A DNA stretch of 64,000 nt, taken from contig NC_135804.1 in NCBI RefSeq assembly GCF_964213995.1, positions 33,480,001-33,544,000 of the forward strand. Reading direction: 5' to 3'. The position numbers and the translations under genes are program-made. The DNA comes from Mustelus asterias (taxonomy: Eukaryota). Below the pieces are notes generated by a model. It made no database searches. It worked only from the letters and a program-made list of their open reading frames with translations, and was not told the DNA's origin. This document shows positions 21,818 to 36,080 of this stretch, one piece after another; position 1 is the first letter of the stretch, and each line of letters begins with the position of its first letter.

Positions 21818-22649
21818 TTAAGACTTTTACTTTTACAAAAGACTAAAAATACTTTTGACTAAACACTACCTTTGTAAGCAACTTATAATTTAAACCACAA
21901 AACAGAGTATCCTCCCTTTTATTTTAGCACAACTAAAAACACATATCACAGATACACTATACGCAGTACTTTCAGTAAACATCCAATTCTCTCAGAACCA
22001 GTCTAAGGTGATTCTTAGTTCCTAAGGGTTTATTTCTGTTCTTTTCCTTTCTCAACCTGGAATTTTTAAATCTCAGAACTGTTTTTCACAGTGATGTTTT
22101 TACCGCTGGAGATTCTTCCTCTAATGCAATGCTAGGCGAATTGTCCAGCTTCATCTTAACTCCTCATGAATTAGATATTTACAATCCAAGCACAAGCTCC
22201 TGCCCACATTCCTGTGTGGTGAACCATAGCATCCTGCTGCCTACAGCTGCTCTCTCCTAGATTCTGGCAGAGCACATTAAGTTGTCCGTGAGTTCCCAGG
22301 TGTCATAGACCCTTCCCCTCTCAAAGCCCTCTCTTTGACAATGGAACTCACATAGGTCTTGATTCCAGGTAGAAATCCTGATTTACATTCCTGGAGACCC
22401 CAGCTCTCTTTTATCTTGGAAGTAGATGGACAGATTAAAGAACAACTGTTTACAACCTGACATTCCCAACATTTTCCTGGGGTTTTGAAGAGTCTCAGTC
22501 TTCACTGTTAGCACACAGGCTTCTGCCATTGTCTCCAAGTGTAAACACCTTGCACCTTCTTCCCAGTAAAACAACCTGGGCCCCTTTTGATCTTTAACAA
22601 CAAACAACCCAGGCTTGCTGTCAGGTAGACATCAGAACCTGCCACATCA

Positions 22650-24007
22650 CAGAATATTTCCAGTGCAGAAGGAGGCCATGCAGCCCATCGAGTCTGCACA
22701 GGTTCTCAGAGAGCATTCTACATAGTCCCACTCCCCTGCCTTAGCCCGTAGCCTTTTCAGATAGCAATCAATTTGAATACCTCGATCAAACCTGCCTCCA
22801 TCACTCTCTCAGAAAGTTCATTCCAGACTTCAACTACCCTCTGGATGAAAACATTTTTCCTCACATCATTTTTGCCAATTATTCTGAATCTGTGCCCTCT
22901 AGTTCTTGCTGCCCTGTTGAGTGGAACAGTTTCTCACTAATTACCCTGTCCATACTCCTCAAGATCTTGAATGCCTCCATTAAATTTCCTCTCAGCCTAC
23001 TTTACTCCAAGGAAAACAGTCCCAATCTCCAATCTATCCTCATAGCTACAGCTCTCTATCCCTGGAATCATTATTGTGAATCTCCTCTGTACTCTCTCAA
23101 ATGCTTTCACATCCTTTCTCAAGTATGGTGCTCAAAACTGGATGCAGTACTCCAGATGAGGCCTAAACTAGCATCTTATACAAGTTGAACATGACCTCCT
23201 TACTCTTGTACTCAGTGCCCCTCTTACTAAAGACTAAGACACTACATGCTTTTTAACTGCTCTCTTAACATGCTCTGCTATCTTCAATGACTTACATCCA
23301 TATACACTCTGTTTCTGCACCACCTTTAAAGTTACTCCCTTGATTTAATACTGTCTCTCCATACGCTTCCTGACAAAATGTATCACCCCCATACTTCTCT
23401 GCATTGAACTTCATCTTTTACTTGTCTGCCCAATCCACTAATACGCCTATGTCCTTTTTTAAATTCAAGATATCCTCATCGCAGTTGACAGCATTTCCAA
23501 TCTTTGTATTATCTATAAATTTTGAAATCATGCCCTGAACATCACAATCTAAGAAATTAATATACATCAAGAAGAACAGCGGTCCCCAAAATGACCCTTG
23601 GGGAACTCCACTGGAAACCTCCCTCAAATCAGAAAAACTATGGCGTATTGTTACTCTCTGTTTCCTGTCACGCATCTAAGTGCCTATTTTCCCTTTTATT
23701 CATGAGCTAGAATCTTGTTCACAAGTCTGGTGTGTGGCACTGTATCAAATACCTTTTGAAAATTCATATACACCACATCAACAACTACCTTCTCTGCTAC
23801 CCCCTGAAAAACTACATGAAGTTAGTTAAACATGATTTTCCCCAAATTAATCCCTGTTGACTTTCCTTAATTATCCTGCATTTGTCGAAGTGACTATTAA
23901 TTTCATCCTAAACTATAGTTTCCAGAAGGGTTCCCGACCAATAAAGTCAAACAGACTGGTCTCTAGTTGTCGGCTTTATCCTTGCACCCATTTTTGAGCA
24001 AGGGTAT
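22650..24007 (-). mobile_element. CR1 LINE (3' part; continues at 28725-29509 and 31514-31640)
   Basis: SSGVPQGSFWGPLFFLMYIN...ISKFIDNTKIG RT motif; tail at ~22655. Confidence 0.85.
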
Positions 24008-24315
24008 TGATGCGCGATTAATTCACTCGGGAGGCTGGATCGTACCCGGGAAATAAAGGCTTTTATTAGCAACAAGAATAGAGCATACTGCTTAACAATA
24101 CAATCCCAGACTAAAGGGTCACTAGGAAGTGCAGTGACCTTTATACTCCTATAGGAAGGCGGAGCCAACCGGAGTGTACCACAGAACAATACCAACAGGT
24201 GGAACACCCCAACCCTAACCCCAACAGTAACAAGAGTAACATATGTACAAATGCCCATAGTGATAACCATCTATGGTTCAGTACCCATAGTGGTAACCAT
24301 CTATGGTTCACCACA
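24008..24315 (-). repeat. 3' LTR (308 bp)
   Basis: Direct repeat of 28352-28719; contains TATAAA, AATAAA and two 30-bp units. Confidence 0.95.
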
Positions 24316-24377
24316 TTCACCCCTCCTTTAAAAACAAAGGCCGGTGGGGCAAAAAAAAGTACGAACTGTCCATATAT

Positions 24378-25500
24378 TCACAAGTTCAGTCGTATCGGAG
24401 GTCCGCACCGTCTCTGCGACCTCCGCAGCACTGGCGGTAGCGCCGGTTCTGGTGACCGTGGTGACCCTCTCTCCAAGGTGGTGTCCAGTGACTCCTCCAG
24501 TTCCTCACGGACGGGTGGACCTCGAGGTGGCGACAATCTCCTGGACTCAGGCAAGCGGTACACGGGAGTAAGAGGATTAAGTGGAGGTCCCGATACTGCC
24601 CGCGCCGTGTCAGGAGGGGAGAGAATGGGCAAAGGAACTCTAACCAGGGGTGCGGGAGCGACGGGGGTTTCCAGGTCCCCTGCAGGCGCCAGATCTCGGA
24701 TAGAGACCGTGTCCTCTCGCCCGTCAGGATATGCTACATAGGCATACTGAGGGTTGGCGTGGAGGAGATGGACCTGTTCAACCAAAGGGTCGGACTTGCG
24801 GGTCCTAACATGCCGCCGCAGGAGGACAGGTCCTGAGTACGTCAACCAAGACGGCAGTGAGGTCCCAGAGGAAGACTTCCTAGGGAAGGTAAACATCCGC
24901 TCATGTGGGGTAGCGTTGGTTGCCGTACACAGGAGGGACCGGATTGAGTGGAGCGCATCAGAAAGTACCTCTTGCCAACGGGAGACTGGAAGACCCCTAG
25001 ACCTTAACGCCAGTAAGACAGCCTTCCAGACTGTAGCATTTTCTCTTTCGACCTGCCCGTTACCCCTGGGGTTGTAACTCGTAGTCCTACTTGAGGCAAT
25101 TCCTTTAGAGAGCAGGTATTGCCTCAAGTCGTCGCTCATAAACGATGAACCCCCTATCACTGTGGATATAACTGGGGTAGCCGAACAGGGTAAAAAGACT
25201 CCGCAGGGCTTTGATGACCGTGGCTGCGGACATGTCTGAACAGGGAATGGCAAAAGGGAATCGGGAGTACTCGTCAACCACGTTGGGGAAGTACACATTC
25301 CGATCTGTCGAAGGAAGGGGGCCCTTGAAATCAACACTCAGTCGTTCAAAAGGGCGAGTGGCCTTAATGAGGTGTGCCCTGTCAGGTCGGTAGAAGTGCG
25401 GCTTGCATTCAGCACATACCTGGCAGCTTCAAGTTATCGACCTGACATCCTCTATGGAGTAGGGCAGATTCCGGGCCTTTACAAAATGGAAGAGCCGAGT
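24378..25500 (-). pseudogene. Gypsy integrase (premature stop and frameshift)
   Basis: HHCC (HNDLCHPG...CQVC), DFKGP, VDEYSRFPFA, HSDRG, GNGQVER motifs spread over several frames. Confidence 0.9.
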
Positions 25501-26388
25501 GATCCCCGGATGGCAGAGATCATTGTGGAGGGCCTGTAGCCGGTCCTCCTGCACACTGGCACAGGTTCCACGCGACAGGGCATCTGAGGGCTCATTGAGC
25601 TTCCCCGGACGGTACATGATATCATAGTTGTAGGTGGAGAGTTCGATTCTCCACCTCAAGATTTTATCATTCTTGATTTTACCCCTTAACGTGTTGTTGA
25701 ACATGAATGCCACGGACCGCTGGTCCGTGATCAGGGTAAATCGTTTTCCAGCCAAATAATGGCGCCAATGCCGGACGGCCTCCACAATGGCCTGAGCCTC
25801 TTTTTCCACAGAGGAGTGCCAAATTTCAGGGCCTTGGAGGGTGCGAGAGAAAAAGGCGACGGGCCTGCCCGCCTGGTTAAGTGTGGCGGCCAGGGCGAAA
25901 TCAGATGCATCACTCTCCACCTGGAAGGGGATGGACTCATCGACAGCGTGCATCGTGGCTTTCGCGATGTCAGCTTTTATCCCTTCAAAGGCTAAGCGAG
26001 CCTCTGCTGCCAGGGGAAAAGAGGTGGATTTTATGAGCGGACGGGCTTTGTGCGCATAATTGGGAACCCACTGTGCGTAATACGAGAAGAAGCCTAAACA
26101 TCTTCTCAGTGCTTTGATGCTAGTGGGTTGGGGAAGTTCAAGGAGGGGACGCATACGGTCTGGATCGGGGCCGATGACCCCGTTTTCCGCCACGTATCCG
26201 AGGATTGCTAGGCGGTGCTTGCTGAATACACACTTCTCCCTGTTATAGGTCAGATTCAGGTGAGACGCAGTGCGTAAAAACTTCAGGAGGATGGCGTCAT
26301 GGTCCTGCTGGTCATGGCCGCAGATAGTGACGTTGTCCAGGTACGGGAAGGTAGCCCGTAGCCCGTTTTGGTCCACCATTCGGTCCAT
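25429..26388 (-). CDS. Gypsy pol fragment: RT C-terminus and RNase H
   Basis: FPYLDNVTICG, KCVF, ILGY, ESDASDFALAA, EKEAQAIV, LITDQRS, IMYRPGKLNEPSDALSR. Confidence 0.9.
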   Translation of the reverse strand: MDRMVDQNGLRATFPYLDNVTICGHDQQDHDAILLKFLRTASHLNLTYNREKCVFSKHRLAILGYVAENGVIGPDPDRMRPLLELPQPTSIKALRRCLGFFSYYAQWVPNYAHKARPLIKSTSFPLAAEARLAFEGIKADIAKATMHAVDESIPFQVESDASDFALAATLNQAGRPVAFFSRTLQGPEIWHSSVEKEAQAIVEAVRHWRHYLAGKRFTLITDQRSVAFMFNNTLRGKIKNDKILRWRIELSTYNYDIMYRPGKLNEPSDALSRGTCASVQEDRLQALHNDLCHPGITRLFHFVKARNLPYSIEDVRSIT

Positions 26389-26464
26389 TTCACGCTGGAA
26401 GACCGAGACCCCATTAGTGACGCCAAAAGGGACCCTTAAGAAGTGGTAGAGACGGCCATCCGCC

Positions 26465-27277
26465 TCAAAGGCCGTGTATTTTCGGGCGAATGGGGAGCTG
26501 GTGGTAGGCTGACTTCAAGTCGTTGGTGGAGAACACCCGGTACTGCACAATCTGGTTGACCATGTCAGATATGCACAGGAGAGGGTATGCGTCCAGCTGC
26601 GTGTACCTATTAATGGTCTGACTATAGTCTATGACCATCCAGGGCTTGTCTCCAGTCTTAACCACCACGACTTGCGCTCTCCATGGGCTAGTGCTAGGTT
26701 GAATGATACCTTCCCTGAGGAGCCGCTGAGCCTCAGATCGAATAAAGATCCGATCCTCAGCGTTGTAACGCCTGCTCTTAGTTGTGATGGGTTTGGAGCC
26801 TGGCACGAGATTTTCAAATAAAGAAGGCGGGGTGATTTTGAGTCTTGAGAGACTGCACGTGGAGCGCGCTGGGCGATTTGGAGGCTTCTGTTCTCCCACT
26901 GAAAGTGGAGGGAGTGGCCCATCGTACTGCAGGGTCACACTCCTCAGGTGGATCATAAAGTCTAGTCCCAGGAGTACCGGAGCACAAAGGTGCGGTAACA
27001 CGAGGAGCCTGAAGTTCTCATAAACTGTGCCCTGCACCGTTAGAGTTACCACGCAGCTCCCAAGAACGGTAACAGATCGGGAACTCAACGCCATAGAAAT
27101 TGTCTGCCTGACAGTTTGTACTCGGAGAGCGCACCGTTTCACGGTATCCAGATGAATGAAACTCTCCGTGCTCCCGCTGTCAAACAGACAATGTATCAGG
27201 GGTCCGTTTACCTCTATGTCCATCATGGACTTGTCGAGTCTGTGAGGCTTGGCCTGGTCCAGGATGATTGACGCCAC
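26465..27277 (-). CDS. Gypsy pol fragment: aspartic protease and RT N-terminus
   Basis: CLFDSGS, LLGLDF, IIQPSTSPWRAQVVVV, DLKSAYHQ; frameshifted at both ends. Confidence 0.9.
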   Translation of the reverse strand: MASIILDQAKPHRLDKSMMDIEVNGPLIHCLFDSGSTESFIHLDTVKRCALRVQTVRQTISMALSSRSVTVLGSCVVTLTVQGTVYENFRLLVLPHLCAPVLLGLDFMIHLRSVTLQYDGPLPPLSVGEQKPPNRPARSTCSLSRLKITPPSLFENLVPGSKPITTKSRRYNAEDRIFIRSEAQRLLREGIIQPSTSPWRAQVVVVKTGDKPWMVIDYSQTINRYTQLDAYPLLCISDMVNQIVQYRVFSTNDLKSAYHQLPIRPKIHGL

Positions 27278-28301
27278 TGTTGGATCCCGAGTGCAACTGC
27301 AGGCAGCTGAGATGGTCGTCTGCGGCCGGTGCCGACCAAAATGGCTGCGTCCATGGATCGCACATGGTCGATGGCGTTGAAAGTGGCGGCACTCGCAGGT
27401 CGCACGTGTCTTGCATCGTCGTCCTCAGGAATGGCGGCGCCCGTGAACCGCACGTGGTTGAAGACATCGACGAAGCTGGAGACGAGGAGACGGATCCTCG
27501 GGAGTCACATGCAGCACTGCTTGGCTTCGAAGGTGGCTTCGCTCGGCACACTTTAGAATAGTGCCCTTTCTTTCCACAAGCAGAGCAAAATACCGTCCTG
27601 GCCGGACATCGCTGACGAGGGTGCTTCGCCAATCCACAGAAATAGCACCGGGGGCCTCCTGGAGCTGCCTCCGCCGTCAGGTCCGAGGTTGAAAGCACGA
27701 TCGCGCAGTTCCTAGGAGCCGCTGGGTAGAGTTGAGTCGGTGGCTGTACTTGCCACGATGTTCCCACGTGGTCGGTGGGGTAAGTTTCAAGACTTCTGGA
27801 GGCCGTTTCCATCGCATCAGCCAATTCCACCGTCTTAGCTAGGTCCACGTTACCTTGCTCTAGCAGCCGCAGGCGAATATAGGATGAGCCGATTCCCGCC
27901 ACGAACGCATCTCGGATCAGATCGTTAGTGTATTGAGTAGCCGACACTGGCTTGCAATTGCAGGCTCTGGCTAGCTGCTGAAGTTCGCGCAGGTTCTGTC
28001 CCGTCGTTTCGCCGGGCTGCCGCCGTCGAGTGGCTAGTAGGTGACGAGCATGAATCTCGTTTGGCGGTTTATGGTACAGCTTCTTGAGTAATTCGATGGC
28101 CTCTTTGTAGTCTTGTGAATCGCGGATTGTTGCATACACAGTGTCGCTTACCCTTGCATGGAGGACCCGCAATCTGTCGGCGTCGTTTTGGACTGCTGTT
28201 GAGGCGTCAATATAATCCTGGAAACACTTCAACCAATGGTCGAAAGTGTTCGACGATCCAGCGGCACGCGGATCTAAGGTAAGCCGATCGGGTTTTAACA
28301 T
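27180..28301 (-). CDS. Gypsy Gag with two zinc knuckles
   Basis: 373 aa; RRQPGET, LIRDAFVAGI, CYFCGLAKHPRQRC and CSACGKKGHYSKVC; the C-terminal part is probably out of frame. Confidence 0.92.
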   Translation of the reverse strand: MLKPDRLTLDPRAAGSSNTFDHWLKCFQDYIDASTAVQNDADRLRVLHARVSDTVYATIRDSQDYKEAIELLKKLYHKPPNEIHARHLLATRRRQPGETTGQNLRELQQLARACNCKPVSATQYTNDLIRDAFVAGIGSSYIRLRLLEQGNVDLAKTVELADAMETASRSLETYPTDHVGTSWQVQPPTQLYPAAPRNCAIVLSTSDLTAEAAPGGPRCYFCGLAKHPRQRCPARTVFCSACGKKGHYSKVCRAKPPSKPSSAACDSRGSVSSSPASSMSSTTCGSRAPPFLRTTMQDTCDLRVPPLSTPSTMCDPWTQPFWSAPAADDHLSCLQLHSGSNSGVNHPGPGQASQTRQVHDGHRGKRTPDTLSV

Positions 28302-28351
28302 TTGCTCCGTGGTGTTTTTTTTTTCAAGACAAAATTTGTTGCTAATAAAAT

Positions 28352-28719
28352 TGATGCGCGATTAATTCACTCGGGAGGCTGGATCGTACCCGGGAAATAA
28401 AGGCTTTTATTAGCAACAAGAATAGAGCACACTGCTTAACAATACAATCCCAGACTAAAGGGTCACTAGGAAGTGCAGTGACCTTTATACTCCTATAGGA
28501 AGGCGCAGCCAACCGATGTGTACCACAGAACAATACCAACAGGTGGAACACCCCAACCCTAACCCCAACAGTAACAAGAGTAACATATGTACAAGTGCCC
28601 ATAGTGATAACCATCTATGGTTCAGTACCCATAGTGGTAACCATCTATGGTTCAGTACCCATAGTGATAACCATCTATGGTTCAGTACCCATAGTGGTAA
28701 CCATCTATGGTTCACCACA
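28352..28719 (-). repeat. 5' LTR (368 bp)
   Basis: Direct repeat of 24008-24315 with four 30-bp units. Confidence 0.95.
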
Positions 28720-29509
28720 GGTATAACATTCACAGTTCCCTAGTCCTCTGGCACCACCCCTGTGTCTCAGGAAGACTGCAGGATTATCACCAGAACCTCA
28801 GCAATTTCCACTCACAATTCCCTCAGTACTTTTGGGCACATCTCATCGAGTCCAGGCACCTTATCAATTTTAAGTAACGATAGCCATTCTTCTCAATTAT
28901 AAATTCTTCTAGTGTACCAATTACCCCCTCTCTCATCTCGGCCTGGGTAGCATCCTCTTTCTTTGTAAAGATAGATGCAAAGTACTCATTTAATACCGTC
29001 TGTCAATTCTCCTGCCTCCATGTGTGAGACTTATTTTTTATACCTAATTGGCCCTACTCTTTTTTTATGACTCTTTTATCATTTATAGCCTAATAGAAAA
29101 CCTTGGGATTTATTTTTATGTTAGCTGCCAGTCTCTTTTCATCCTCTCTTCTTGCTTTTCTTTATTTTTTTCACTTCCCCTCTGGTCCTTCTATATTTAT
29201 CCTGAGTCTCCATTTTCTACATGACATCTGTCCTACATGCATCTCTTCCTTTTCACCTTGACCTCTGTCTCACTCGTCATCTGGATTTATTTATTCTGCC
29301 TTTCCCCTTCAAGGGAGTATACTATGACATTGCCCGAAATAATTTCTCTTTGACGGTAGCCCACTGTTCAGCCACTGTCTTTTCTGCCAACACTTGTTTC
29401 CAACTCACTCGCTTCAGATGCATTCTATCAAAATTGGCTTTTCCTCAATTAATTACCACTCCTTGTTCTTTTCCAAGGCCAACCTAAACCTTGTGGTGCA
29501 ATGGTCACT

Positions 29510-31513
29510 GGGTGGAATTTTACAACCTCATTGCGCCCGTTTTGCAACGGAAAAATGTCGTTCAATCGGGCATGATGCGATAGCTGGAATGGTGCTCGTT
29601 TTCACGCCCATTTCCGTTTTACCAAGAAAAGAATTGGCACAATCGGGAACCTGCCCAAAATAGTCGAAACATCAATTTGCATGTTTTTGCATTTATCACA
29701 ATGTCATTGGCGAGTTTCACTCCCAATTGTCCCAGATCACCTGCCTTAATGACCTCGTTCACTGCAGCCGGATTGGTCAGGAAAACACCTCATGTCTAAA
29801 AGTTGCATTCAGGCGCTTGAGCAGTGAGGGTGAGCGAGGAGGTAAGTTTCTGCATTCAAACTGCTTCGTGCTGCTCAGGGGGGGAGTTGTTTCATAGAGG
29901 CCATGTTGCATTTCAGGTCGGCAGGGAGGCTGCGAGTGTTTTGCGGGGGGGGGGGTATTTGTTGCTCAAGAGATCCAACCTCGGACTTCAACATGGACCC
30001 GGGTCAGAGTGCTGACCTCGGGTATTAGCGCTGACTCTGTGCTGGCAGCAGGAGGCACTGTTGCTGGTAGGGGATGGGCTGGAAACTCTCTAAAGTGGCA
30101 ATGCTGCAGCTTCAGGACTTGTCAAGCAGCACTGTCTGTGGCCACCACTGCATGGGAGCTGGCTGTGTGTCTGTGAGTGTGGGGGTTGAATGGGAGGGGC
30201 TGTGTTGCCATTCTGGAATCTGTGGGGGTGGTATGGGGAATGTGTGTTGCTGGGGTCTGTGGGGGGCTATGGGGAGTGTGTGTTACTGGGGGTCTGTGGG
30301 GGGTATGTGGAGTGTGTGTGCTGGGGGTCTGTGGGAGGGTATGGGGAGTGTGTGTGCTGGGGGTCTGTGGGAGGGTATGGGGAGTGTGTGTTGCTGGGGT
30401 CTGTGGGGGGGGCATGGGGAGTGTGTGTGCTGGGGGTCTGTGGGGAAGGTCTGGGGAGTGTGTGTTGCTGGGGTCTGTGGGGGAGGTCTGGGGAGTGTGT
30501 GTTGCTGGGGTCTGTGGGGGAGGTCTGGAGAGTGTGTGTTGCTGGGGTCTGTGGGGGAGGTCTGGAGAGTGTGTGTTGCTGGGATCTGTGGGGGAGGTCT
30601 GGGGAGTGTGTGTTGCCAGGATCTGTGGGGGGGTATGTGGAGTGTGTGTGCTGAGGGTCTGTGGGGGGGGGGGGGGGGGGGGGCAGGGGGGTGGTATGTG
30701 GAGTGGGTGTTGCTGGGCTGGAGGCGAGCAGAGTTCTTTAACCTCTCCATCTGTCTCTCCCTTTCTGCAAATTCCCCCCACCTTCAGATTGACAAGATGG
30801 CCTTGGCAATGTAACCCATTGATCTCGCTGCTCTTTGGGTTGCTGCTGGAGCTGAGGAGGAGGAGCTGGAGGATGAATGGTGGGCAGAGGAGGCCCAGGC
30901 CTTACCACTCGCAGGAGGAGAGGGAGACGGCCAGAGGCAGGACATGGCTGCCATTCACCCCGGGGGTGGGGGGGAGGTTGTGGGGGGGGGGGGGGTGCTG
31001 CAGGAGAAGGATCCAGGCAGTTCAGCATGTTTGAGCAACTGTCGGACATCGTGTGCCGAAAGGAGACAACGCCACCTGTGCCATTTGTTGCAGGACCTTG
31101 CACATCGGGGCACAGGGGGGCACCAACTCCTGGTGACTGTGAAAGTGACAACCACCTTAAATGTTTATGCCATCGTATCCTTCCAGATCACCAGTGGAGA
31201 CCTTTGTGGCATTTCCCAACCATCCGTCCACAAGTGTGTGAAGGAGAGGGAAGACGGTATCTGGCCCGGGGAGTTCTGTCAGCAGAGCTGCTTTTCCCGA
31301 ACATGCGCAGCTTGTGACTCCAATCTGAGCTGCAAGCTGTCTGGCAAATTGGGCCCCACCCACTGCCTCTAGCAGCTAAAAATGGTCTAGCCCATTTTTT
31401 CAAAGACTGAGTGCATAAGATTGGATGTGAAAACTCTCCCAAAAATGAATCAGGAACTCTCCCATTTTCACGTGAGCTGGACACTTAGAAAAAAATCTCG
31501 TAAAATTCCACCC
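29510..31513 (+). mobile_element. Non-autonomous PIF/Harbinger transposon
   Basis: Perfect 14-bp TIRs GGGTGGAATTTTAC / GTAAAATTCCACCC; 3-bp TSD ACT; HARBI1-like remnant HLCHLLQDL...VKVTTTLNVYA..SFQ..SGDLCGISQPSVHKCVKE at ~31075-31245. Confidence 0.9.
30215..30720. repeat. G-rich 36-37-bp minisatellite inside the Harbinger element
   Basis: About 12 units of GGGAGTGTGTGTTGCTGGGGTCTGTGGGGGAGGTCTG. Confidence 0.9.
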
Positions 31514-31649: not shown

Positions 31650-31800
31650 TAAGTTTATTTATTAATCTCACAAGTAGGCTTATATTAACACTGCAATGAA
31701 GTTACTGTGAAAATCCCCTAGTCGTCATACTCCGGCGCCTGTTTGAGTACACTGAGGGACAATTTAGCATGGCCAATGCACCTAACCAGTACGTCTTTGG
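31650..31800 (-). mobile_element. Truncated V-SINE with alternative tail
   Basis: Matches the 3' half of 37078-37370. Confidence 0.8.
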
Positions 31801-31859
31801 CTCTTTCTGTGTTGCATTTTTTAAATGATGTCTTGCCATGCTCTCCCTTTTCTCGCCCT

Positions 31860-34800
31860 TTATTAAGTCTTGTTTCTCTCTCCCTCTCGTGTCTCATTAT
31901 GAAGTCTCTCTGCTCTCTCTCTCTCGTGTCTCTTTATGAAGCCTCTCTGCTCTCTCCCTCTCGTGTCACTTTATGAAGTCTCTCTGCTCTCTCTCTCTCT
32001 CGCATCTCTTTATGAAGTCTCTCTGCTCTCTCCCTCTCGTGACTCTTTATGAAGTCTCTCTGCGCTCTCTCGCGTCTCTTTATGAAGTCTCTCTGCTCTC
32101 TCTCACGTCTCTTTATGAAGCCTCTCTGCTCTCTCCCTCTTGTGTCTCTTTATGAAGTTTCTCTGCTCTCTCTCTCTCTCGCATCTCTTTATGAAGTCTC
32201 TCTGCTCTCTCCCTCTCGTGTCTCTTTATGAAGTTTCTCTGCACTCGCCCTCTCGCATCTCTTTATGAAGTCTCTCTACTCTCTCCCTCTCGCATCTCTT
32301 TATGAAGTCTCTCTGCTCTCTCTCTCTCGCATCTCTTTATGAAGTCTCTCTGCTCTGTCCCTCACGCATCTCTTTATGAAGTCTCTCTGCTCTCTCTCTC
32401 TCGCATCTCTTTATGAAGTCTCTCTGCTCTCTCCCTCTCGTGACTCTTTATGAAGTCTCTCTGCTCTCTCTCGCATCTCTTTATGAAGTCTCTCTGCTCT
32501 CTCTCACGTCTCTTTATGAAGCCTCTCTGCTCTCTCCCTCTTGTGTCTCTTTATGAAGTTTCTCTGCTCTCTCTCTCTCGCATCTCTTTATGAAGTCTCT
32601 CTGCTCTCTCCCTCTCGTGTCTCTTTATGAAGTTTCTCTGCACTCGCCCTCTCGCATCTCTTTATGAAGTCTCTCTACTCTCTCCCTCTCGCATCTCTTT
32701 ATGAAGTCTCTCTGCTCTCTCCCTCTCGCATCTCTTTATGAAGTCTCTCTGCTCTCTCTCTCTCGCATCTCTTTATGAAGTCTCTCTGCTCTCTCTCTCT
32801 CGCATCTCTTTATGAAGTCTCTCTGCTCTCTCCCTCTCGCGTCTCTTTATGAAGTCTCTCTGCTTTCTCGCTCTCGCGTCTCTTTATGAAGTCTCTCTGC
32901 TCTCTCCCTCTCGTGTCTCTTTATGAAGTCTCTCTGCTCTCTCTCTCTCGCATCTCTTTATGAAGTCTCTCTGCTCTCTCCCTCTCGCGTCTCTTTATGA
33001 AGTCTCTCTGCTCTCTCTCTCTCGCATCTCTTTATGAAGTCTCTCTGCTCTCTCCCTCTCGCGTCTCTTTATGAAGTCTCTCTGCTTTCTCGCTCTCGCG
33101 TCTCTTTATGAAGTCTCTCTGCTCTCTCCCTCTCGTGTCTCTTTATGAAGTCTCTCTGCTCTCTCTCTCTCGCATCTCTTTATGAAGTCTCTCTGCTCTC
33201 TCCCTCTCGCGTCTCTTTATGAAGTCTCTCTGCTTTCTCGCTCTCGCGTCTCTTTATGAAGTCTCTCTGCTCTCTCCCTCTCGTGTCTCTTTATGAAGTC
33301 TCTCTGCTCTCTCTCTCTCGCATCTCTTTATGAAGTCTCTCTGCTCTCTCCCTCTCGCATCTCTTTATGAAGTCTCTCTGCTCTCTCTCTCTCGCATCTC
33401 TTTATGAAGTCTCTCTGCTCTCTCCCTCTCACGTCTCTTTATGAAGTCTCTCTGCTTTCTCGCTCTCGCGTCTCTTTATGAAGTCTCTCTGCTCTCTCCC
33501 TCTCGTGTCTCTTTATGAAGTCTCTCTGCTCTCTCTCTCGCATCTCTTTATGAAGTCTCTCTGCTCTCTCCCTCTCGCGTCTCTTTATGAAGTCTCTCTG
33601 CTTTCTCGCTCTCGCGTCTCTTTATGAAGTCTTTCTGCTCTCTCCCTCTCACGTCTCTTTATGAAGTCTCTCTGCTCTCTCCCTCTCGCGTCTCTTTATG
33701 AAGTTTCTCTGCTCTCTCTCCCGCTCACGTCTCTTTATGAAGTCTCTCTGCTCTCTCCCGCTCACGTCTCTTTATGAAGTCTCTCTGCTCTCTCTCCCGC
33801 TCACGTCTCTTTATGAAGTCTCTCTGCTCTCTCTCTCTCGTATCTCTTTATGAAGTCTCTCTGCTCTCTCCCTCTCGTGTCTCTTTATGAAGTCTCTCTG
33901 CTCTCTCTCTCTCATGTCTCTTTATGAAGTCTCTCTGCTCTCTCCCTCTCGCGTCTCTTTATGAAGTCTCTCTGCTCTCTCTCTCTCGTATCTCTTTATG
34001 AAGTCTCTCTGCTCTCTCCCTCTCGTGTCTCTTTATGAAGTCTCTCTGCTCTCTCTTTCTCTCACGTCTCTTTATGAGGTTTCTCTGCTCTCTCTCTCTC
34101 GCGTCTCGTTATGAAGTTTCTCTGCTCTCTCCCTCTCACGTCTCTTTATGAAGTCTCTCTTCTCTCTCTCTCTTTCGTGTCTCTTTATGAAGTATGTCTG
34201 CTCTCTCCCTCTCGTGTCTCTTTATGAAGTATGTCTGCTCTCTCTCTCTCGTATCTCTTTATGAAGTCTCTCTGCTCTCTCCCTCTCGTGTCTCTTTATG
34301 AAGTCTCTCTGCTCTCTCTCTCTCGTATCTCTTTATGAAGTCTCTCTGCTCTCTCCCTCTCGTGTCTCTTTATGAAGTCTCTCTGCTCTCTCTCTCTCTC
34401 GTATCTCTTTATGAAGTCTCTCTGCTCTCTCCCTCTCGCGTCTCTTTATGAAGTTTCTCTGCTCTCTCTCCCGCTCACGTCTCTTTATGAAGTCTCTCTG
34501 CTCTCTCCCGCTCACGTCTCTTTATGAAGTCTCTCTGCTCTCTCTCCCGCTCACGTCTCTTTATGAAGTCTCTCTGCTCTCTCTCTCTCGTATCTCTTTA
34601 TGAAGTCTCTCTGCTCTCTCTCTCTCATGTCTCTTTATGAAGTCTCTCTGCTCTCTCCCTCTCGCGTCTCTTTATGAAGTCTCTCTGCTCTCTCTCTCTC
34701 GTATCTCTTTATGAAGTCTCTCTGCTCTCTCCCTCTCGTGTCTCTTTATGAAGTCTCTCTGCTCTCTCTTTCTCTCACGTCTCTTTATGAGGTTTCTCTG

Positions 34801-35715
34801 CTCTCTCTCTCTCGCGTCTCGTTATGAAGTTTCTCTGCTCTCTCCCTCTCACGTCTCTTTATGAAGTCTCTCTTCTCTCTCTCTCTTTCGTGTCTCTTTA
34901 TGAAGTATGTCTGCTCTCTCCCTCTCGTGTCTCTTTATGAAGTATGTCTGCTCTCTCTCTCTCGTATCTCTTTATGAAGTCTCTCTGCTCTCTCCCTCTC
35001 GTGTCTCTTTATGAAGTCTCTCTGCTCTCTCTCTCTCGTATCTCTTTATGAAGTCTCTCTGCTCTCTCCCTCTCGTGTCTCTTTATGAAGTCTCTCTGCT
35101 CTCTCTCTCTCTCGTATCTCTTTATGAAGTCTCTCTGCTCTCTCCCTCTCGCGTCTCTTTATGAAGTTTCTCTGCTCTCTCTCCCGCTCACGTCTCTTTA
35201 TGAAGTCTCTCTGCTCTCTCCCGCTCACGTCTCTTTATGAAGTCTCTCTGCTCTCTCTCCCGCTCACGTCTCTTTATGAAGTCTCTCTGCTCTCTCTCTC
35301 TCGTATCTCTTTATGAAGTCTCTCTGCTCTCTCTCTCTCATGTCTCTTTATGAAGTCTCTCTGCTCTCTCCCTCTCGCGTCTCTTTATGAAGTCTCTCTG
35401 CTCTCTCTCTCTCGTATCTCTTTATGAAGTCTCTCTGCTCTCTCCCTCTCGTGTCTCTTTATGAAGTCTCTCTGCTCTCTCTTTCTCTCACGTCTCTTTA
35501 TGAGGTTTCTCTGCTCTCTCTCTCTCGCGCCTCGTTATGAAGTTTCTCTGCTCTCTCCCTCTCACGTCTCTTTATGAAGTCTCTCTTCTCTCTCTCTCTT
35601 TCGTGTCTCTTTATGAAGTATGTCTGCTCTCTCCCTCTCGTGTCTCTTTATGAAGTATGTCTGCTCTCTCCCTCTCGTGTCTCTTTCTGAAGTTTCTCTG
35701 CTCTCTCCCTTTCGC
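31860..35715. repeat. ~37-bp pyrimidine-rich tandem satellite, about 100 units
   Basis: Unit TCTCTTTATGAAGTCTCTCTGCTCTCTCCCTCTCGTG with variable CT length. Confidence 0.98.
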
Positions 35716-35942
35716 GCCTCTGCAGAAGTCTCCCTGAGACCTCCTTCATTTTATCTGAATTTAAAGACAGCTCCAAAATGTAACAATTTTATAATGCTCA
35801 TAAATGTAGCAGGATTGTGATCGGGGTAAGGCCTCTGATGAAGTATTTCCTTAAGTTGTGTTTTAATCCTTCCAGCTGATTAGTAAGTTATCTGCGCTGA
35901 CTGGATCCTCAGTGTCTGTGGTTGGCAGGCTGGCCAGCTTGC

Positions 35943-36080
35943 TGCTCTGATGAAGGGTCATCCAAACTTGAAACGTTGGCTCCATTCTCTCTCCATAAAT
36001 GCTGCCAGGCCAACTGAGATTTTACAGCATTTTCTGTTTTTGTTTCGGATTCCGGCATCCGCAGTATTTTGCCTTCATAT
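35943..36080 (+). mobile_element. Penelope-like pLTR copy with canonical-core hammerhead remnant
   Basis: CTGATGA AGGGTCATCCAAACTT GAAA CGTT, followed by sequence homologous to 36270-36365. Confidence 0.75.

Follow-up and report, generated by a model that had tools for sequence, protein, structure and literature searches.

A primer-binding site complementary to its own LTR in a lineage of animal Ty3/Gypsy retrotransposons, and its probable role in self-primed reverse transcription

In a Ty3/Gypsy retrotransposon of the shark Mustelus asterias, the primer-binding position (PBS) that follows the 5' LTR is an exact complement of a segment inside the element's own LTR, and on sequence comparison a self-complementary PBS of this kind is common to the whole lineage to which the element belongs, comprising about two dozen distantly related families. 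LTR elements must begin their minus-strand DNA beside the edge of U5, and as the only sequence found at this place is a covarying complement of the element's own RNA, it is very likely that minus-strand synthesis in this lineage is self-primed in some form. The original prediction, in which self-priming was suggested from a single element, is thus strongly supported, as the relatives of this element are without a TGG-type PBS, the complement is not a one-off inversion, and the two pairing sequences covary both within and across families.

The element was found in a window of 64,000 nucleotides (contig NC_135804.1, positions 33,480,001 to 33,544,000), and the positions of its features are listed in Table 1. 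Its placement in Ty3/Gypsy is based on the presence of TG..CA LTRs, a target duplication, a polypurine tract and the domain order PR-RT-RH-IN. The gag-pol region is split into four reading frames (27180-28361, 26465-27424, 25429-26514 and 24378-25337), in which protease, RT and RNase H were recognised by Pfam matches, whereas the integrase family was assigned from homologues of the element; Gag carries two CCHC knuckles. The two LTRs are 98.4% identical (~305 nt compared), but the 5' LTR is longer by two 30-nt tandem units, the unit that opens U3 being present four times in the 5' LTR (28598-28719) and twice in the 3' LTR (24254-24315). The host site of the element is a LINE-type RT remnant, which we take to be CR1. 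Two other observations in the window concern 15 nt at 22215-22229 (forward strand) that match the beginning of the LTR, where the surrounding sequence is unrelated and shows no more similarity to the element, and long 37-nt tandem arrays with a strong strand skew at 31700-36000 and 30200-30700.

Table 1. Positions of the features of the reference element in the window, and of three fold-back insertions elsewhere in the genome
Feature	Contig	Positions	Strand	Remarks
Ty3/Gypsy LTR retrotransposon, full-length but decayed	window	24008..28719	-	4712 nt
Target site duplication ATACC, 5' side	window	28720..28724	-	partner at 24003-24007
5' LTR, TG...CA	window	28352..28719	-	368 nt; ends ...CGCGCATCA at 28352
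TATAAA, candidate TATA box (putative function)	window	28484..28489	-	70 nt upstream of pairing segment
Pairing segment TTGTTGCTAATAAAA, predicted 3' end of self-primer	window	28405..28419	-	contains AATAAA at 28411-28406
Predicted small hairpin, GCCT-loop-GGGT	window	28388..28404	-	begins at the base directly after the pairing segment
Single A (spacer) separating the PBS from the LTR end	window	28351	-	
Primer-binding position TTTTATTAGCAACAA	window	28336..28350	-	complement of own LTR segment
gag-pol (Gag with two CCHC, protease, RT, RNase H, integrase region)	window	24378..28301	-	
Polypurine tract	window	24316..24329	-	upstream of 3' LTR
3' LTR	window	24008..24315	-	308 nt; second copy of pairing segment at 24075-24061
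Fold-back insertion L238	G000:C2	~61,256,300-61,256,900		
Fold-back insertion L256	G000:C4	~105,185,300-105,185,900		
Fold-back insertion L170	G000:C17	~57,240,500-57,240,830		

In the reference copy, TTTTATTAGCAACAA is the reverse complement of TTGTTGCTAATAAAA over all 15 nt, with 54 nt separating the two arms. The coordinates given earlier for this arrangement, viz. an exact complement 1 nt past the 5' LTR, a 54-nt loop and an AATAAA inside the segment, were reproduced, and no TGG is present after the 5' LTR, as had been stated. A complement of this length is far beyond chance, since among 558 positions tested in the internal part of the element none pairs over 15 bp with its own LTR, the maximum being 10. 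When the region is folded as RNA, the duplex is present in both the minimum-energy and the centroid structures; however, the fold energy is modest by itself (z -1.7). The case for the duplex is built on comparison.

The first comparison is provided by the element's own genome (3.68 Gb), in which the LTR-PBS junction occurs in at least 673 copies; the closest named homologues of the element are from sharks and rays. At one site of the duplex, the letters in the LTR and the PBS are G/C in 170 copies and A/T in 24, with the combinations G/T and A/C seen in one and four copies, respectively. The four A/C copies include two with G in the 3' LTR, one with A in both LTRs and one in which no second LTR is present in the stretch. 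A set of 121 distinct copies was also compiled (30 best matches, 28 copies picked for the A variant and 66 junctions, minus 3 duplicates), where the 66 junctions were drawn from the first 100 listed, excluding those already caught by strict patterns. The pairing segment was found in 119 of these copies, and seven matched versions of the PBS and segment occur in this genome. A perfect duplex is formed in 83 of the 119 copies, whereas shuffling of PBS and LTR between copies gives a mean of 20.7 and a maximum of 35. However, as the sample is non-random and the copies share ancestry, these results should be counted as about six compensatory events and not as 83. Some mismatching PBS variants recur in independent insertions (one variant in three copies, another in two), which indicates that a perfect duplex is not strictly needed. 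In the U5 stem of this family the combination GGG/CCC is found in 93 of the 119 copies and GAG/CTC in 7, with the mixed GAG/CCC in 5. In one further copy (L226), the LTR has a deletion that extends from within the segment into U5, the PBS behind it is normal, and the same stretch contains another element junction.

The second comparison involves distant relatives. Homologue scans led to 90 loci, whose RTs are mostly 45-65% identical, and the start of gag could be placed in 45 of them, the other 45 being too short or decayed for this purpose. An own duplex in the same register is present in 40 of the 45 loci with a placed gag; in 32 it follows a CA and is perfect over 11 nt or more, and in 8 it contains G-U pairs or a mismatch, or is located at the opposite end of a contig that is permuted. 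A clear duplex is absent in the remaining five (L043, L066, L080, L103 and L104), two of which have less than 130 nt of upstream DNA, while one locus in which the gag start is not placeable (L100) still has a 14-nt duplex at its LTR end. In none of the related loci is a recognisable LTR end followed by TGG, so that the expectation of relatives without a normal TGG PBS was borne out. The pairing is specific for each family, as the own-family duplex measures 13-19 nt, whereas cross-family pairing has a mean of 5.3 and a maximum of 9 (132 pairs). The covariation of the post-LTR 15-mer with the LTR segment hence holds within as well as across families, and an origin of the complement by a one-off local inversion is rejected, as both the duplex and the covariation recur in copies from the own genome and in relatives.

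A control set of 20 Gypsy loci, which are ~30-38% identical, gave a different result: a repeat pair was found in 15 of them, of which 9 have a TGG within 2 nt, and in all 15 the self-pairing extends over 3-7 nt. In an RT-RH tree of 47 rows (drawn with midpoint rooting and containing no named reference sequences), the 27 self-pairing rows and one long unlabelled row share one side of a branch with support of 100/99. Another distant Gypsy element (L137, G001:C30), whose RT adjoins its 3' LTR, has neither a TGG nor self-pairing at an LTR end defined by a repeat match. No relative was found in the viral contigs searched. Assemblies labelled as bacterial MAGs (L111-L120, G001-G004) contain numerous Gypsy elements of animal type, with 2-103 matches each, and this probably reflects eukaryotic DNA in those assemblies.

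These comparisons also bear upon the possibility that the primer is a small RNA of the host with this sequence, such as a fragment of a tRNA. Half-tRNA primers are described for Copia lineages in the accessible parts of PMC6317226 and PMC10886601, and they could serve as a precedent. However, a primer of this kind would have to match at least seven PBS versions in the own genome and about two dozen elsewhere, each of which matches its own LTR, and no CCA complement is present; hence, we regard it as exceedingly improbable. A search of positions 28200-28760 against Rfam gave no match at gathering level (three hits, E 1.4-3.7). Priming by a tRNA in the usual manner is rejected on the same grounds, viz. 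PBS versions that match their own LTRs, and the lack of both a TGG and a CCA complement.

The features that accompany the duplex were examined in 25 family representatives, in which the duplex is 11-19 nt long and the end of the segment is separated from that of the LTR by 23-77 nt. In 23 of the 25 families the spacer consists of a single nucleotide; the segment has TAAA or AAAA at its 3' end in 22, and the next bases are GCC or ACC in 20. A hairpin of the form RCCT..AGGY directly follows the segment in 16 families (a null of 2000 gave a mean of 2.0 and a maximum of 8) and is missing in 9, and a long conserved stem in the U5/loop region was not found across these families (mean z -0.47). An AATAAA or ATTAAA overlaps the segment end in 16 families, lies downstream of it in 2, and is absent in 7 when the region from -40 to the LTR end is considered. 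Based on these counts, the poly(A) hexamer is less conserved than the register, the A-rich 3' end and the adjacent helix.

If the duplex served mainly to hide the poly(A) signal of the 5' LTR, in the way that the poly(A) hairpin of HIV-1 does, then something else would have to prime the element. The original prediction had assigned this role to the structure in addition to priming, and it is agreed with in part: in the fold models, the probability that AATAAA is unpaired is 0.00-0.04 in the 5' context and 0.83-0.90 in the 3' context, and in 16 families a canonical hexamer does overlap the segment end. However, 9 of the 25 families are without a canonical hexamer at the duplex end and the duplex is kept in all of them, as it is in L098, where the segment ends in TGAAGA. 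Further, hiding of the signal has no need for a 1-nt register at the U5 edge, and no other primer site is visible. Poly(A) occlusion is therefore rejected as the defining function, and the view that it is the main role of the duplex appears improbable, but as a secondary effect it is plausible.

The original prediction also placed the primer at an internal position in the RNA. Going by the TATA box alone, the segment of the reference family would probably begin ~35-45 nt inside the RNA and not at +1; however, among the 25 families, 1 has a TATAWA in the 110 nt that precede the segment.

Additional information is provided by copies in which the PBS continues as a complement of the LTR. A search for such copies in the own genome gave 6 matches, and all 6 proved to be real templated extensions. 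Three of them (L238, L256 and L170) are fold-back insertions, each derived from a different subfamily. L238 and L256, of 545 and 560 nt, have the layout U3-R-U5-A-PBS-inverted R-inverted U3, so that both of their ends are formed by the LTR start, and their arms differ by 6 and 7 mismatches, respectively; in L170 the left arm is lost and the target duplication is kept. The 5-bp target duplications are CACTG for L238, ATTGC for L256 and CTCTG for L170. On the opposite strand of these insertions, the 3' end of the segment is joined to T plus the complement of U5, and this junction is the one expected under self-priming. The fold-backs would be most simply explained if a plus-strand DNA with the PBS at its end had paired with the segment and been elongated from there to the end of U3. 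However, it will be incorrect to interpret these insertions as proof of priming, since a pause of the plus strand at the PBS would account for them as well; what they show is that the pairing occurs during reverse transcription. In the other three copies (L169, L171 and L218, on G000:C17, C25 and C2), the PBS is prolonged by 9-10 nt as LTR complement and the extension joins the gag start by microhomology, with the 5' UTR dropped. As such copies are found at separate loci (based on a comparison of the flanks of L169 and L171), this variant may have transposed.

Since all 6 matches in this genome are real templated extensions past the PBS, it could be argued that the complement is itself a by-product, in which copying by fold-back rewrites the post-LTR bases from the LTR and produces covariation with no role in priming. 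This reading requires that a duplex already exist, it leaves the element without any primer site, and the fixed spacer, the length of 11-19 nt and the adjacent hairpin remain unexplained by it across RTs that are only 50-65% identical. It is thus very improbable.

A question of more consequence is which copy of the segment acts as the primer, as the segment is present in both LTRs. If the R segment of the 3' copy paired with the PBS, after its tail was cut or trimmed and through either an end-to-end loop or a second packaged RNA, then the covariation and the register would be accounted for equally well, and the position of the segment end at a poly(A) hexamer, which 16 of the 25 families show, as well as the presence in the fold-backs of all of U3 upstream of the segment, would also be in accord with it. 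Two copies (L004 and L019) carry the PBS letter of another subfamily in a background that is otherwise of their own type, as priming in trans might leave. However, the fold-backs stop at the LTR start and are without a polypurine tract, which is what a plus-strand DNA template, and not RNA, would be expected to give; the 5' copy is only 54 nt away and would presumably pair first during transcription; and Tf1, the only tested precedent, employs its 5' copy according to the accessible parts of PMC7175516. We consider the use of the 3' copy as rather unlikely, and priming by the 5' copy of the LTR segment, following a predicted cut at the segment 3' end, as the somewhat better-than-even case. The 5' copy is favoured because it is near in cis, has the Tf1 precedent, and explains why the segment ends just before the poly(A) site. 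In a comparison aimed at these two possibilities, the two main subfamilies were found to hardly recombine (few recombinants). As a separate observation, L004, L019, L193 and L220 each have one letter typical of another subfamily in either the PBS alone or the LTR segment alone, with a background of their own type, which is possibly due to priming in trans or to local conversion.

With regard to its affinities, the element was earlier described as Mag-like. Two CCHC knuckles in Gag are a feature of the Mag lineage, of which a tRNA-type TGG PBS is also typical, and with a size of ~4 kb and short LTRs Cigr-1 presumably matches the element. The description holds for Gag only. This lineage is without a TGG PBS, and a long branch separates its RT clade from all TGG-primed Gypsy RTs in the tree; the name Mag/Cigr-1 should be taken as a lead. 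In a rough comparison, since different searches were involved, the RT-RH of the element scored 102 bits against Ty3, and its scores with TGG-primed Gypsy reached 151 bits. The accessible parts of PMC6238403 place Cigr-1 of Ciona under the Mag lineage, and the shared characteristics are two CCHC knuckles in Gag, no chromodomain, and marine animal hosts among the named homologues. The supplementary files covered for PMC6238403 and PMC8556966 contained no motif matches. The last ORF gave no Pfam match, no chromo family was seen in any of the five long homologues scanned or in the domain lists of the 120 homologues listed, some partial, and a chromovirus search of the own genome via SH3_Tf2-1 gave 14 loci, none of which is a chromovirus-like element with LTRs. 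In the absence of a chromodomain the element is not filed under Tf1/sushi.

The following likenesses and differences are based on the accessible parts of the cited papers. Tf1 primes with the first 11 nt of its RNA after cleavage by RNase H (PMC7175516); it requires a structure made up of three duplexes, and a chromodomain at the C-terminus of integrase is what defines its group (PMC10085805); Tj1 is inferred to self-prime in the same manner (PMC4600332). Our lineage shares with Tf1, Tf2, Tj1, Tosmo and the Tf1/sushi group the Ty3/Gypsy domain order, the lack of a tRNA PBS, a PBS that complements a segment of its own LTR, and extra helices beside the primer duplex (PMC7175516, PMC4600332, PMC10085805). 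It differs from Tf1/sushi in the missing chromodomain, and from Tf1 in a duplex of 11-19 rather than 11 nt, the end of which falls at the poly(A) hexamer or close to it, 23-77 nt from the LTR end, and in a second helix that is a local hairpin behind the primer and not, as in the 'pretzel' of Tf1, a duplex with PBS-adjacent sequence. Self-priming was tested for Tf1, while in this lineage it is inferred from comparison, and the proposed priming mode of the lineage would be a variation on a known self-priming mechanism. The plant TAR Copia elements (Houba, Osr-1) and Tcn1 are also predicted self-primers, based on a complement of at least 10 nt located 0-5 nt after the 5' LTR (PMC6317226); however, TAR belongs to another superfamily and Tcn1 is a chromovirus, and no link to a poly(A) signal is described for them in the parts covered. 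The prediction for TAR and Tcn1 implies that the self-priming trait arose more than once. For Skipper of Dictyostelium and the fungal GalEa, which have no canonical PBS, unconventional priming has been proposed (PMC5006619, PMC6934838), but in Skipper, where a polypyrimidine stretch is present, the LTR holds no complement to it, and the GalEa hairpin sits in the internal domain. The LTR-PBS duplex of this lineage is not described in the accessible parts of PMC3601003, PMC6934838, PMC5006619, PMC10886601, PMC13524379, PMC6238403, PMC8556966, PMC3670739 and PMC2864245. No description of its self-priming was found in the full-text literature searched, and an earlier note is possible in subscription journals, Repbase Reports, GyDB or some supplements.

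Based on the above, the following model can be proposed. Its starting point is the PBS complement located 1 nt from the U5 edge, which covaries with the segment. In the RNA the segment is predicted to pair with the PBS, and the RCCT..AGGY hairpin would stack directly behind it. By analogy with Tf1, cleavage of the RNA would follow at AAA^GCC, the probable enzyme being the RNase H of the element, and the new 3'-OH would be extended across the spacer and U5. The resulting strong-stop DNA may transfer with the help of the short region bounded by the cut and the poly(A) site, and if so this would explain why the segment coincides with the poly(A) hexamer or comes directly ahead of it. At a later stage, as the fossils suggest, a plus strand ending in a copy of the PBS can mis-anneal to its own segment, giving rise to fold-back insertions. 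The hidden poly(A) signal of the 5' LTR is likely a side benefit in some families and not the core function. Taken in its entirety, the scheme of a widespread animal Gypsy clade that evolved self-priming independently of Tf1/sushi, with the RNA cut within R at the duplex and the RCCT..AGGY hairpin, the same structure silencing the 5' poly(A) signal, and the plus strand folding back to leave a palindromic LTR fossil, is put forward tentatively.

To our knowledge, self-primed reverse transcription has been shown experimentally only for the fission-yeast Tf1, the plant Copia case being predicted, and self-priming has been regarded as a mark of the Tf1/sushi chromoviruses. If the interpretation presented here is correct, then a separate and abundant animal clade would make self-priming a repeatedly evolved solution, and the natural set of covarying sequences would name the cut site to the level of the base. 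Annotation that demands a tRNA PBS overlooks such elements, and elements without a tRNA site should also escape silencing by tRNA fragments. In addition, the fold-back insertions would represent an intrinsic cost of self-priming and, at the same time, a route to short palindromic repeats.
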